Both the position numbers and the translations under genes were made by a program. A DNA stretch of 64,000 bases from Escherichia coli (GTDB lineage Bacteria > Pseudomonadota > Gammaproteobacteria > Enterobacterales > Enterobacteriaceae), in the NCBI RefSeq assembly GCF_050920415.1, contig NZ_CP169309.1. One strand, written 5' to 3'. Positions 29,548-58,268 of this stretch are shown here, one piece after another; positions within the stretch are counted from its first letter, which is position 1; each line of letters starts with the position of its first letter. The notes beneath the pieces are model-generated. The model had not been told where the DNA came from. It ran no database searches and was given only the letters and a program-made list of their open reading frames with translations.

Positions 29548-30137
29548 GTGAGTTATTACGCCTTTGAGGGGTTAATTCCAGTGGTTCACCCGACGGCGTT
29601 TGTCCATCCCAGTGCGGTCTTGATTGGCGATGTGATTGTGGGAGCCGGTGTCTACATCGGCCCACTCGCCTCACTGCGTGGTGACTACGGGCGGTTGACG
29701 TGCAAGCGGGAGCCAATATTCAGGATGGTTGCATTATGCATGGCTACTGCGACACTGACACCATCGTTGGGGAAAACGGCCATATCGGGCACGGAGCAAT
29801 CCTGCATGGTTGTGTGATTGGTCGCGATGCATTGGTCGGGATGAACAGCGTGATTATGGATGGCGCGGTCATTGGCGAAGAGAGCATTGTTGCCGCCATG
29901 AGCTTTGTCAAAGCAGGCTTTAGCGGCGAGAAACGTCAGTTGTTGATGGGTACGCCTGCCCGCGCTGTACGCAGTGTTAGTGACGACGAGTTACACTGGA
30001 AGCAGTTGAATACCAAAGAGTATCAGGATCTTGTCGGCCGCTGCCATGTAGCGTTACATGAAACGCAGCCGTTGAGACAAATGGAGGAAAATCGCCCCCG
30101 TTTGCAGGGGACGACGGATGTGACGCCGAAACGGTGA
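29548..30137 (+). pseudogene. caiE: caiE split by an apparent 1-bp deletion (frameshift near 29698)
   Basis: Two ORFs in different frames (29527..29817 and 29700..30137) together cover CaiE; the first diverges after GDYGRL and the second resumes at (V)QAGANIQDG. Span is 590 nt, one short of the 591 expected for 196 aa plus stop. Confidence 0.7.
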
Positions 30138-35295: not shown

Positions 35296-35450
35296 AACAC
35301 CCTCCAGAGAATATTCACTCACTTTATTTGCATATTAATTCACAATGATGACGTAAATCAATGCAAATCTGCTTACCGACGAATTTCTGGCAAACGGCGG
35401 CATTCTGGAGAGATGAGAGCTAAAAGTCAACTTAATGGTGGTATTTTTTA
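35296..35450 (-). promoter_or_regulatory. carAB control region containing an ARG-box-like operator
   Basis: Seen in sequence: TGAATTAATATGCAAATA on the minus strand (plus 35325..35342), matching the ArgR ARG-box consensus just upstream of carA. Assignment to promoter P2 is from established knowledge. Confidence 0.6.
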
Positions 35451-53903: not shown

Positions 53904-55397
53904 TTAGCCCCAGGTCACTGCTTCTGGTTTATCACCTCTGGCTTTCATTAGAGAATCATTATCAATATCACTTTTATATTTTAAAAACTTACCATACATC
54001 TGTTTTTCAATATCTGGTTTTTTACCGATCAGATTAAGTGTTTCAAAACGATCAGATTTAAGATTATAGAGATATTTCGGTTTATTATTGCGATCGATAA
54101 TCATCTTCCAGTCACCATCACAGATCGCCCATTCATCGGTTGGATCATCCTGGAATGGCATATCAATCCCGAAAATTAATGGCTTTTCGCGTTTCAATGC
54201 TTTTTGCTCAAGAACAGGAACCAACGATTCGCCATCAAAAGTGCGGTCCGTCGGTAATTTGAAGTTCATCATTTTCGCCAGCGTAGGCATCCAGTCCAGA
54301 CCATAAACGGGAGTATCTGAAACCATTCCCTTTGGAAGATGCTTTCCGTATTTAATAATCGCCGGAACACGGATGCCGCCTTCCCAAAGATTATCCTTGC
54401 GACCACGTAATCCATCAGTTTCCCCTGCCAAATTCAGTTCATAAACTTTACGTGCTTCACGGGTTACTGGGCCGTTATCACTGGTAAAAATAACGATGGT
54501 GTTATCTTCTTCACCCATCGCTTTGATTTTATCCAGTACTTTTCCAACCTGAGCATCCAGATAACTGATGTTGGCATAATATTCCCCCACACCACGCCAG
54601 GGTTTATCCGCCCAGTCGCCATAAAATAAATCAGGATGCTGCTTCTGATACGCGCTCATATATTGTGAGTACATGTCGAGGTATTTTTTGGGCGAAGCCA
54701 GGGGGCTATGCACTTCGGTAAAAGCGACATAAAGGAAGAAAGGCTTACTATCCTTTTTGTTATCCAACCAGTTAACGACTTCCGAACTGACATACTCACC
54801 ACTCATTTTATCGGCACGAGGTGTGGGTTGCCCGTTACGCAACCAACCCGTCGGATACACCATGCCAAAACGGGGACGCTCCTTCGCATTATCCAGAGTA
54901 GCGTCGGTAACAAAACCCGCCGTATTAACCAGTGAGTAATCAAAGCCCATATCTTTTGCCTGAGGCTGATCGGTACGATCGCCGCCTGCATTCAGATGCA
55001 GCTTACCCATCATTGCCGTGTCGTACCCTTGCGCTTTGAGTAGATTAGCAATCGTGAGTTCATTACGCCCTAATGCCACATCTTTTCCCGTTGGTATCCA
55101 TGAACGTATGCCGGTACGAAATGGCATCCGCCCCGTTAATAACCCCGCTCGCGAAGGAGAACTTAAGGGAGCTGGGGCATAGTAGTCAGTAAATTTGACG
55201 CCCTCCTGGGCAAGCCTGTCAATATTGGGGGTTTTAACGATCTGATGACCATATGTTGCTAAATCGCCATAACCTAAATCATCCGCCATAATAATGACTA
55301 AATTAGGTTGTTTAACCTCTGCGGCTAAGGCAGGACTAAAAGCATTCCCTGTGCAAACTGCAAGGCCGATCAAACTGGCCATTAACGTTTTCTGCAT
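53904..55397 (-). CDS. Secreted Ser-type sulfatase (arylsulfatase family)
   Basis: 497-aa ORF with signal peptide (MQKTLMASLIGLAVCTGNAFSPALA); sulfatase signature APAPLSSPSRAGLLTGR with Ser at the formylglycine position; N-terminal metal-binding region (IMADDLGYGDL). Confidence 0.85.
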   Translation of the reverse strand: MQKTLMASLIGLAVCTGNAFSPALAAEVKQPNLVIIMADDLGYGDLATYGHQIVKTPNIDRLAQEGVKFTDYYAPAPLSSPSRAGLLTGRMPFRTGIRSWIPTGKDVALGRNELTIANLLKAQGYDTAMMGKLHLNAGGDRTDQPQAKDMGFDYSLVNTAGFVTDATLDNAKERPRFGMVYPTGWLRNGQPTPRADKMSGEYVSSEVVNWLDNKKDSKPFFLYVAFTEVHSPLASPKKYLDMYSQYMSAYQKQHPDLFYGDWADKPWRGVGEYYANISYLDAQVGKVLDKIKAMGEEDNTIVIFTSDNGPVTREARKVYELNLAGETDGLRGRKDNLWEGGIRVPAIIKYGKHLPKGMVSDTPVYGLDWMPTLAKMMNFKLPTDRTFDGESLVPVLEQKALKREKPLIFGIDMPFQDDPTDEWAICDGDWKMIIDRNNKPKYLYNLKSDRFETLNLIGKKPDIEKQMYGKFLKYKSDIDNDSLMKARGDKPEAVTWG

Positions 55398-55417
55398 AAT
55401 TATTCCCTGATAAAAAA

Positions 55418-56178
55418 TTAGAAATCATAACCAAGCATATAAATCATTTGATCGCCAAAGCCATCGTAGCCCAGCTTATTATCGAAATAACGCCACGTCA
55501 CACTGGCTTTCCAGCGAGGATAGAACTTCCAGGCAATAGTTAAACCGCCATTTAACCCGTTCCGACCAAATTGCTGCTCCGTGTAAGCATCGTTCCTATC
55601 CAGTTCTATTTCATTCCAGTTAGATAAAACAAATTTTTCGTCAAATAACATAAATGGCAATACTGCTGTCCAGCCAACAACATAACCATTCCAACCATTC
55701 GTTTGACCATATTTAGCTGATACGTAGTCACCAGATTGATTATGTAATCCAATATACGGTTTACCCCCCCCCATGAACCATTCCAGCCGAGGTAGCCCAA
55801 ACCATAAAACATATCAAGATCGTCACCCCATGAGTTATCCCATTGACCATAGATCTTGCCAAAGAAAGTCATATCAGAGTCAAAGAGTCTGACATGCGTC
55901 ATTGCTGAAACTGTATGATTTCTCCCTGCTACAGCATGATTGAGTACATTACTTTCATAAAATGAGTAAAATTCTGCTTCTTTAAAATTTACCCCAAAAT
56001 CCGCAGTCACTTTCCATACTTCACCACGGTGAGTGTTTACAAATCCACTATTCCAGTCTGCATAACCCGCATTTATTGAACCAAAGGTTCCTTTATATTC
56101 TAATGAAGAATATGCAGGAAAATGATAGATAGCTGTTATCAGGGTACACGCAATAAGAAGTCGTCTTTTGGCAGACAT
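55418..56178 (-). pseudogene. Tsx-like outer-membrane beta-barrel channel, frameshifted in a G9 homopolymer
   Basis: ORFs 55606..56178 and 55418..55774 in different frames; signal-peptide-like N-terminus (MSAKRRLLIACTLITAIYHFPAYS), aromatic-rich beta-strand composition, C-terminal ...YMLGYDF. The frames meet at the homopolymer at 55764..55772. Lies 20 bp upstream of the sulfatase. Confidence 0.75.
55764..55772. repeat. Homopolymeric tract C9 (G9 on the coding strand) inside the channel gene
   Basis: Seen in sequence: TTA-CCCCCCCCC-ATGAACC. Coding strand reads TCA TGG GGG GGG GTA AAC (out of frame); 10 G would give TCA TGG GGG GGG GGT AAA CCG = S W G G G K P. Confidence 0.9.
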
Positions 56179-56690
56179 ATAATATGTTCTCCATTCATTG
56201 TTTTTATGATTCCATAGGAATTAATACACCAGACAATTCATTTTTATTAAGAATGACCAAGCCAGTATATTTAAAGATGACTATCGAAGCGTGATGAAGA
56301 TCGCAGATTACTTTTGCGAACGGGCGGAGAGATATCGTGTTTCAGAAAATGTGTCTGTTTTAAATATCACCCTTTGATTTATAGGCATTTTTCATGATGA
56401 ACTTAGCATTGACTGCTGAACGTATTTCTTTGTCTCTCTATAGTATTACACTAACCTTTAATAATTAATTTCCTTTAGCTATTCACTTTTGATAGAGGAA
56501 AACACCTTTTTTTTGTGAATCCCTGGATATATTTAAGTTAAATAAATTGATGTATTGAAATATTATTCCGTAAAAATGCGAGGCGTCTTCAGAAAAAGAA
56601 TTGATAAAACAGAAGTGAATTAAAAGCGCTGTATAATAGCGGCGGGTGCTTGAGGCTATCTGTCTCAGGCATTAGCTGAACGGCAGATAG

Positions 56691-56745
56691 AGAAAAGCCC
56701 CGAGTGATATTTTACCATCAACCCGAGGCCCCCTATATGCTGAAC
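56691..56745 (-). ncRNA. sokC: Putative SokC antisense RNA of the hokC locus (approximate)
   Basis: Placed by analogy to K-12, where the ~55-nt sokC overlaps the 5' end of mokC on the opposite strand. Boundaries are not determined from this sequence. Confidence 0.35.
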
Positions 56746-56946
56746 ACATGTAGAGTGCCTCTTACTGACCGTAAGGTCAAGGAGAAGAGAGCAATGAAGC
56801 AGCATAAGGCGATGATTGTCGCCCTGATCGTCATCTGTATCACCGCCGTAGTGGCGGCGCTGGTAACGAGAAAAGACCTCTGTGAGGTTCACATCCGAAC
56901 TGGCCAGACGGAGGTTGCTGTTTTCACGGCTTACGAATCCGAGTAA
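56737..56946 (+). CDS. mokC: MokC, overlapping regulatory reading frame of hokC
   Basis: In-frame upstream extension of hokC (MLNTCRVPLTDRKVKEKRA-MKQHK...); 69 codons sharing the hokC stop. Confidence 0.6.
   Translation: MLNTCRVPLTDRKVKEKRAMKQHKAMIVALIVICITAVVAALVTRKDLCEVHIRTGQTEVAVFTAYESE
56794..56946 (+). CDS. hokC: Type I toxin HokC (Gef), small membrane peptide
   Basis: 50-aa reading frame MKQHKAMIVALIVICITAVVAALVTRKDLCEVHIRTGQTEVAVFTAYESE, the Hok/Gef sequence. Confidence 0.85.
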   Translation: MKQHKAMIVALIVICITAVVAALVTRKDLCEVHIRTGQTEVAVFTAYESE

Positions 56947-57019
56947 GAGCAACGGCGGGGAGTGATCCCCGCCACTTTACAGGTGCTCGCATATCTTCAA
57001 CGCACCCTATTTTTACCCA

Positions 57020-57043
57020 AGCCTGCCCACAGGCAGGCTTTTG
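57020..57043 (+). terminator. Hairpin plus T-run at the 3' end of the hokC transcript
   Basis: Seen in sequence: AGCCTGCC-CAC-AGGCAGGCT followed by TTTT, between the hokC and dnaJ stops. Confidence 0.45.
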
Positions 57044-57049
57044 GGGAGG

Positions 57050-58180
57050 TTAGCGAGTCAGGTCGTCAAAAAACTTCTTCACACCATCAAAGAAGCTCTT
57101 TGAGCGCGGACTGTTGTGCTCGCCGGTTGGGCCACCGAAGCTTTCTTGCAGCTCTTGCAGCAGCTGTTTCTGCTTCTCGTTCAGGCCTACCGGTGTTTCG
57201 ACGACAACGCGGCACAGCAAATCACCCTGTGCGCCGCCGCGGACAGACTTGACGCCTTTACCGCGCATACGGAACAGCTTACCGGTCTGGGTTTCGCCAG
57301 GCACTTTCAGTTTGACGCGGCCATCAAGGGTCGGTACTTCGATTTCGCCCCCCAGCGCCGCCATAGCGAAGTTGATCGGGACTTCGCAATACAGGTTGTT
57401 GCCTTCACGCTCGAAAATCGGGTGCTGTTTAACCTGAACCTGAACGTACAGATCGCCTGCCGGTGCGCCATGCTCGCCCGCTTCACCTTCGCCCGCAAGA
57501 CGGATGCGGTCTCCAGTGTCCACCCCTGCCGGAATTTTAACGGACAGCGTTTTGCTGCGCTCAACACGCCCATGACCATGACATTTGTTGCACGGATCTT
57601 TGATCAGCGTACCGCGGCCCTGACAGTGTGGACAGGTCTGCTGCACAGCAAAGAAGCCCTGGCGCATCTGCACCTGACCAGAGCCATGACAGGTCGGACA
57701 GGTCTGCGGCTGTGTACCTGGTTTTGCACCGCTACCGTGGCAAACGTCACACTCTTCCAGAGTCGGAATGCGGATCTCTTTGGTCACGCCACGTACAGCT
57801 TCTTCGAGGGTGAGCTCCATGTTATAGCGTAAATCAGCACCGCGCGCCGCACGTTGACGACCACGTCCGCCGCCAAAAATATCGCCGAAAACGTCACCAA
57901 AAATATCGCTGAAGTCTGCGCCGCCGCCAAAACCGCCGCCGCCCATGCCGCCTTGCTCAAACGCAGCATGACCATACTGATCGTATGCCGCACGTTTTTG
58001 CGAGTCGGTCAGAACTTCATAAGCTTCCTTGATCTCTTTAAATTTCGCCTCGGCCTCTTTGTCACCCTGGTTACGGTCCGGGTGGTATTTCATGGCCAGG
58101 CGTTTGTAGGCCTTTTTGATTTCACGCTCTTCCGCTGTTTTGGAAACGCCTAAAATCTCGTAATAATCTTGCTTAGCCAT
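57050..58180 (-). CDS. dnaJ: Chaperone DnaJ (Hsp40)
   Basis: ORF track 57050..58210; start at [12 protein letters not shown] (376 aa); J-domain HPD motif, Gly-rich linker, four CxxCxGxG zinc-finger repeats. Confidence 0.97.
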
Positions 58181-58268
58181 CTTTTTTGATTTGCCCCTAG
58201 ATGAATGCACGGGCGGAGAGGAAATTCCCCTTCGCCCGTGTCAGTATAATTACCCGTTTATAGGGCGA

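Follow-up and report, generated by a model that had tools for sequence, protein, structure and literature searches.

The 64,000-nucleotide stretch of the Escherichia coli chromosome analysed here (the window, which runs in reverse relative to K-12) very probably carries the chromosomal type I toxin-antitoxin locus hokC/mokC/sokC in its wild-type form, free of IS elements and with the complete set of R1-type hok/sok cis-regulatory RNA elements. We observed the anatomy of this locus, its empty IS186 target site, the predicted alternative folds of its mRNA, covariation across the hok family and constraint on the sequence. The configuration is the majority and ancestral state, has been known since 1999, and is ordinary. 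The features of the locus are listed in Table 1.

Table 1. Positions of the features of the hokC locus in the window
Feature	Position	Strand	Description and basis
-10 box of hokC/mokC mRNA (putative)	56632..56637	+	TATAAT; 6 nt before the presumed +1; direct reading
Full-length hokC mRNA (predicted)	56644..57043	+	about 400 nt; 5' end at RF01794 position 1, 3' end at hairpin/T-run
tac	56644..56655	+	first 12 nt of the mRNA (5' end), GGGTGCTTGAGG / GGGUGCUUGAGG; folding
sokC antisense RNA (putative)	56687..56745	-	59 nt; homology with annotated K-12 sokC
ucb	56695..56701	+	AAGCCCC; folding
mokC Shine-Dalgarno	56725..56728	+	GAGG; 8 nt before mokC ATG; direct reading
mokC	56737..56946	+	69 aa, same frame as hokC; listed ORF, also annotated in K-12
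dcb	56757..56761	+	GCCTC; folding
hokC toxin gene, intact	56794..56946	+	50 aa, MKQHKAMIVALIVICITAVVAALVTRKDLCEVHIRTGQTEVAVFTAYESE; ORF listing and direct reading
GC-rich hairpin, predicted 3' stabiliser	56954..56973	+	GGCGGGGA-GTGA-TCCCCGCC; perfect 8-bp stem
12 bp duplicated around IS186 in interrupted alleles	56958..56969		GGGAGTGATCCC; allele comparison
fbi (fold-back inhibition)	56995..57007	+	CTTCAACGCACCC / CUUCAACGCACCC; pairs with tac; 49 nt after hokC stop; folding
Terminator-like hairpin and TTTT	57019..57043	+	shared head-to-head with the dnaJ end; direct reading and folding
dnaJ	57050..58180	-	stop codon 57050..57052

The open reading frames, Rfam and Pfam agreed that a hokC/mokC/sokC locus with an intact hokC frame adjoins dnaJ, as the original prediction had proposed. 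The Pfam model HOK_GEF (PF01848) matched the hokC product with E = 5.5e-24 and covered residues 25-66 of mokC. The product is identical to K-12 HokC, and the coding DNA is likewise identical to the K-12 coding sequence in the allele alignment, which places it among the small membrane toxins of the Hok/Gef type. The NCBIfam Hok models also matched the product, at a score below their curated cut-offs (46.8 bits vs 73). RF01794, which is named sok and in fact models the 5' UTR of hok mRNA, gave a full-length match at 56644..56796 with 120.5 bits (gathering threshold 59, E = 3e-28), demonstrating the conserved structured 5' UTR. The overlapping mokC frame is open from upstream of hokC and is preceded by GAGG, an arrangement that by analogy with R1 would couple translation of the two genes. 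A cis-antisense SokC overlapping the mok start was assigned by homology: it matches the annotated K-12 sokC at 58 of 59 nt, and K-12 has exactly the same 50 nt in front of it (56746..56795, minus strand, containing TTGACC), so that the promoter is the same. The RF01794 score, the HOK_GEF E-value and the z-score of the mRNA fold put the identity of the locus far beyond chance.

Direct reading gave exactly 103 bp between the stop codons of hokC and dnaJ (56947..57049), the distance originally predicted, while the start of the locus, previously put at 56650, had to be moved to about 56632 at the -10 box or 56644 at the mRNA 5' end. Within the coding sequence, the Tyr47 codon TAC followed by G (56932..56935) forms UACG, the A-to-I editing motif of TadA, and about 9% Tyr-to-Cys editing of hokC mRNA is reported for K-12 (PMC12214031). 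A tRNA-like TadA substrate hairpin around this motif was rejected, as it was unsupported by folding (z = 0.48).

The TATAAT box is invariant in seven E. coli alleles and E. albertii, and the -35 region of the hokC promoter is weak and polymorphic. A consensus promoter scan found no promoter at the locus, and the assignment in Table 1 was thus made from homology and direct reading. Upstream of the box (56593..56631), two haplotypes differing at about 12 of 40 positions were seen, one shared by the window, MS20645 and E. albertii and the other by K-12, O157:H7 and O18; in this segment the window is therefore unlike the K-12 type. The 5' end of the mRNA, placed at the first position of RF01794, was also indicated by the 5' end of the homologous R1-type hok. 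The 400-nt RNA from this end to the T-run folded with a minimum free energy of -167.9 kcal/mol (z = -8.2); for an RNA of 400 nt, minimum-free-energy and partition-function folding gives a model that takes no account of co-transcriptional folding.

The hairpin and T-run that had been predicted near 57020..57043 proved to be real. The stem pairs 57019/57020-57027 with 57032-57039/57040 around a CACA loop, with TTTT at 57039-57042, and its folding energy of -21.6 kcal/mol (z = -4.2) was reached by none of 200 shuffled sequences. The consensus terminator scan left this hairpin out because the run contains only four T. As the hairpin lies 7-10 nt after the dnaJ stop and the minus strand folds as well (-21.0 kcal/mol, z = -3.3), it might be the terminator of the dnaKJ operon only, unrelated to hokC. 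We regard this as quite improbable, because the tail is UUUU on the hokC strand and UU on the dnaJ strand, and because hok loci in other genomic contexts also carry a GC-rich hairpin with a U-run just after fbi. The hairpin looks better suited to hokC by its tail and is likely used in both directions.

The full-length fold joined the two ends of the mRNA. All 12 nt of tac paired with fbi (12 pairs, p = 0.94-1.00), and ucb covered the Shine-Dalgarno region of mokC. When the RNA was trimmed to 56976 or 56980, tac paired with ucb instead (p = 0.8-0.97), in agreement with the consensus structure of RF01794, and the mok Shine-Dalgarno region (56725..56729) paired with dcb to form the SokC target hairpin (56725..56761), with a loop complementary to the SokC 5' end. 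The 5'-3' pairing that the original prediction had put forward for checking by folding was thus recovered with p of at least 0.94. The same procedure applied to the R1-type hok of pMRGN1031 recovered the known tac-fbi helix as a positive control, and the two predicted folds correspond to the published switch model of hok/sok (PMC9841398). The closing of tac on fbi was seen in silico in the window, in the R1 control and in 15 of 16 family members, and the pairing of tac with ucb and of the mok Shine-Dalgarno region with dcb after 3' trimming was seen both in the truncated folds and in the Rfam structure. No cis element of the hok paradigm is missing from the window. The second codon of mokC (56741) is polymorphic, being CTG (Leu) in the window, K-12 and O157:H7 and CAG (Gln) in O18, MS20645, Res13 strains and E. 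albertii; the substitution falls within the loop of the SokC target hairpin as predicted (CUGAACA vs CAGAACA) and alters a YUNR-like motif.

The pairing of the mRNA ends was also found across the hok family. Loci from other species were collected by a DNA-pattern scan of genome contigs, their 5' ends were set with Rfam, and the loci were aligned and folded. Pairing of the 5' end with a segment located 48-57 nt past the stop codon was seen in 15 of the 16 loci, which represent at least 12 species. The tac and fbi segments covaried in two classes, GGGUGC:GCACCC and GGCGC:GCGCC, and the differences between the window and the R1-type locus in these segments are compensated in this manner. As MAFFT placed the two fbi classes out of register, pairing was judged from the folds and not from column-wise pair counts. 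In the fold of the Erwinia locus the tac-fbi pairing was not recovered, although the complementary AAAAGCAC is visible in the alignment.

The R1-type hok/mok/sok locus of pMRGN1031 resembles the window in having a 5' tac, ucb, mok Shine-Dalgarno, dcb and toxin gene in this order, followed by a GC hairpin downstream of the stop codon, by fbi some 50 nt past the stop and by a terminator, and the same tac-fbi pairing is predicted for both. The hokC of the window differs in being chromosomal and in its toxin sequence, which diverges from that of R1 hok, and its mokC is in frame with hokC. Post-segregational killing has been demonstrated for R1 hok/sok, not for hokC. An R1-type hok on the IncF plasmid NZ_CP141206.1 (1..267 of the extracted locus) was rejected as the R1-type reference and pMRGN1031 was used instead, as the former is cut by IS150. 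The IS150 interrupts the 5' UTR near mRNA nt +90 and removes the promoter, tac and ucb, leaving the toxin gene intact.

The predicted 3' stabiliser is the empty IS186 target site. This hairpin begins 7 nt after the hokC stop (-18.5 kcal/mol, z = -5.1), has the form GGGG-N6-CCCC, and has an equivalent after the stop codon of R1-type hok. IS186A of MG1655 (NC_000913 15387..16731) lies between dnaJ and hokC, is 1337 bp long and is flanked by the 12-bp direct repeat GGGATCACTCCC; the length of the repeat is 11 or 12 bp depending on the IS ends chosen. Alignment with K-12 located the target at 56958..56969 inside the hairpin, and the originally predicted position of IS186 just downstream of K-12 hokC was borne out by the K-12 sequence and by the literature (PMC3562002, PMC12214031, PMC2654758). 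When IS186 and one repeat copy were removed, the K-12 locus aligned with the window without gaps and nearly base for base, with four differing positions within the predicted mRNA and none in the coding sequence. The K-12 allele (gef/hokC-sokC) thus resembles the window in its identical coding sequence, its sokC (58 of 59 nt) and the same fbi and terminator on the dnaJ side, and differs by the 1337-bp IS186 and the 12-bp target duplication inside the hairpin.

In the window itself IS186 is absent and the 103 bp between hokC and dnaJ are contiguous, so that the K-12-type interrupted allele was not found. The stabiliser hairpin, fbi and terminator are all intact, in agreement with the prediction of an uninterrupted 3' region. 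Deletion or mutation of the 3' element, which would have spoken against that prediction, was not seen: the displaced K-12 copy of the element is the same as that of the window except for two substitutions in the terminator hairpin. The K-12 IS186 separates hokC from the 3' stabiliser hairpin and fbi, and the K-12 fbi lies about 1.35 kb from hokC, on the dnaJ side of the element. The separation of hokC from its 3' element by IS186 is stated in PMC3562002 with reference to Pedersen & Gerdes 1999.

The strain Res13-Lact-EB12-05 from pig faeces (NZ_CP062908.1) carried IS186 at this very site, flanked by an identical 12-bp repeat, in the opposite orientation (1174..2534 of the extracted locus, compared with 1380..2740 for K-12). 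The occurrence of both orientations at one site means that IS186 was inserted independently at least twice. The ends of IS186/IS421 also adjoin hokE and plasmid 'hokD' genes at the corresponding position directly behind the stop codon, with junctions 85-90% identical among the matches listed. The GC hairpin that follows hok genes may therefore be a general target of IS186.

The uninterrupted arrangement of hokC and dnaJ was found in 3791 of 5426 complete E. coli genomes (about 70%). Most of the remaining complete genomes break at window position 56969 (megablast, query position 410). IS186 in the K-12 orientation accounted for roughly 600-700 records, many of them laboratory K-12 derivatives, and IS186 in the opposite orientation for roughly 500-800; these class sizes are approximate, as they were taken from ranks in a 60-row spread listing, and junction counts at ≥ 80% coverage are inflated by the paralogous junctions of hokE and plasmid 'hokD'. 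The two orientation classes together make up most of the approximately 30% of complete genomes without the contiguous arrangement, and the 3' hairpin of hokC is a recurrent insertion hot spot of IS186. The uninterrupted arrangement was also present in E. albertii, Escherichia sp. E1V33 and another Escherichia genome, indicating that the empty site is ancestral.

The IS-free form was described by Pedersen & Gerdes in 1999, as cited in PMC3562002 and in bioRxiv 10.1101/2025.08.07.668861. The hokC/sokC of natural isolates such as ECOR24 occupies the same place adjoining dnaJ, lacks IS186 and keeps fbi contiguous; judged from its published descriptions, the window shows no difference from it that matters. 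The window is of little importance beyond correct annotation. It is K-12 that is atypical at this locus, and conclusions on 'inactive' chromosomal hok genes should be applied neither from K-12 to natural isolates nor in the other direction.

When the window was compared with E. albertii, the hokC RNA proved far more constrained than nearby neutral sites. None of the 50 third codon positions of hokC was changed, and the 5' UTR and the whole mRNA were 97.3% and 97.0% identical, respectively, compared with 86.4% at third codon positions of dnaJ and 83% in the DNA upstream of the hokC promoter. Judged from these sequences, the difference argues that the locus is probably maintained by selection. 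Strong constraint on this RNA is expected, as structural, antisense and coding demands overlap in it.

Two findings, the strong conservation of the whole mRNA and the loss of no more than the fbi lock through IS186, bear on the role of chromosomal hok/sok loci. Transcript ends, processing, decay by RNase III, translation coupling and killing were all modelled on R1, and the following course is proposed by that analogy. The weak promoter would give the mRNA of about 400 nt, in which tac would pair with fbi and ucb would lie on the mokC Shine-Dalgarno region, keeping the molecule in a closed form neither translated nor bound by SokC. Slow 3' trimming to the stabiliser hairpin would remove fbi, after which tac would pair with ucb and the mok Shine-Dalgarno/dcb hairpin would form. 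The open RNA would then either be bound by the unstable antisense SokC and destroyed, or be translated from mokC and, by coupling, from hokC to yield the membrane toxin. Where IS186 sits within the hairpin, as in K-12 and many other strains, the transcript would lose the stabiliser and fbi, the toxin gene staying intact.

The view that the complete locus also acts as a toxin system is supported only in part. The original prediction took the uninterrupted 3' region as a sign of function; this is plausible for RNA regulation, as the folds indicate, and unproven for the phenotype. The IS-free hokC of ECOR24, the only one tested, reportedly gave neither post-segregational killing nor activation by rifampicin, a result of Pedersen & Gerdes 1999 known here as summarised in bioRxiv 10.1101/2025.08.07.668861. 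The locus might accordingly be structurally complete and phenotypically inert, with regulated RNAs and HokC never reaching toxic levels upon decay of SokC, as in ECOR24, and the absence of IS186 would then be without physiological consequence. The poor -35 region of the promoter would fit such a locus. We nevertheless consider it doubtful, since the whole mRNA is strongly constrained relative to synonymous sites of dnaJ, the HokC coding sequence is toxic when expressed (bioRxiv 10.1101/2025.08.07.668861), and knock-down of sokC is deleterious even in K-12.

The last of these results came from a CRISPRi screen in MG1655, where knock-down of sokC was strongly deleterious (bioRxiv 10.1101/2020.03.04.975888), and suggests that the IS186-bearing K-12 allele retains its toxicity under sokC repression. 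Inactivation of hokC by IS186, a premise that was also part of the original prediction, is therefore itself contested: several papers (e.g. PMC12214031) state that K-12 hokA, hokC and hokE are inactivated by IS elements, while the CRISPRi phenotype speaks for a toxic K-12 allele. PMC11264685 and PMC2887945 contained nothing on hokC with IS186. It is conceivable, though we would not favour it, that IS186 does not inactivate hokC at all, that both alleles kill equally upon loss of SokC, and that only the 3' end or stability of the mRNA differs. In addition to the CRISPRi phenotype, this agrees with the allele alignment, in which hokC, mokC and sokC are undecayed in IS-bearing alleles, and with the folds of read-through transcripts of 400-800 nt from K-12 and Res13, representing both orientations of IS186, in which the 5' end always lay on ucb; this open tac/ucb form is predicted to be translatable and sensitive to SokC. 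However, the CRISPRi phenotype is from a preprint and may include effects of dCas9 on the transcription of neighbouring genes, the IS is regarded as inactivating in several papers, and by analogy with R1 the stable, inert mRNA on which delayed killing depends should disappear once fbi and the 3' hairpin are lost.

The simplest reconciliation would be that IS186 takes away the closed mRNA reservoir for delayed killing, not the toxicity. A further-reaching idea, which we put forward only as a speculation and think rather unlikely, is that IS186 rewires hokC from a delayed, fbi-locked module into an always-open, SokC-dependent one, such that populations would be polymorphic for two modes, possibly under selection.

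Several other features were noted elsewhere in the window. An insert of about 4 kb between nhaA and hokC (52516..56178) is absent from K-12; the homology with K-12 begins again about 70 bp before the 5' end of the hokC mRNA. It codes for a 421-aa protein with a zinc-ribbon domain of the IS1/IS1595 type, a sulfatase family protein (53904..55397) and a frameshifted OmpK/Tsx-like outer-membrane gene (55418..56178). Chromosomal ccdA/ccdB genes lie between apaH and folA (13978..14528), with ccdA intact (14295..14528) and ccdB split by an internal stop into ORFs at 14182..14292 and 13978..14100, in line with the decay of ccdO157 that has been reported for E. coli (PMC2654758). By the annotation of NZ_CP169399.1, a genome with a 100% match, applied with an offset of -1, the T3SS effector gene espY1 and a transposase remnant lie between rluA and djlA (about 4925..5881), a degenerate fimbrial operon in which the chaperone and usher genes are frameshifted lies between rpsT and nhaR (about 44600..50111), and caiE, annotated as frameshifted, is at about 29548..30137. 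Members of two known sRNA families were also detected on the minus strand, tpke11 in the dnaK-dnaJ spacer (58181..58258, 68.8 bits) and ES003 upstream of carA (35343..35395, 87.4 bits).
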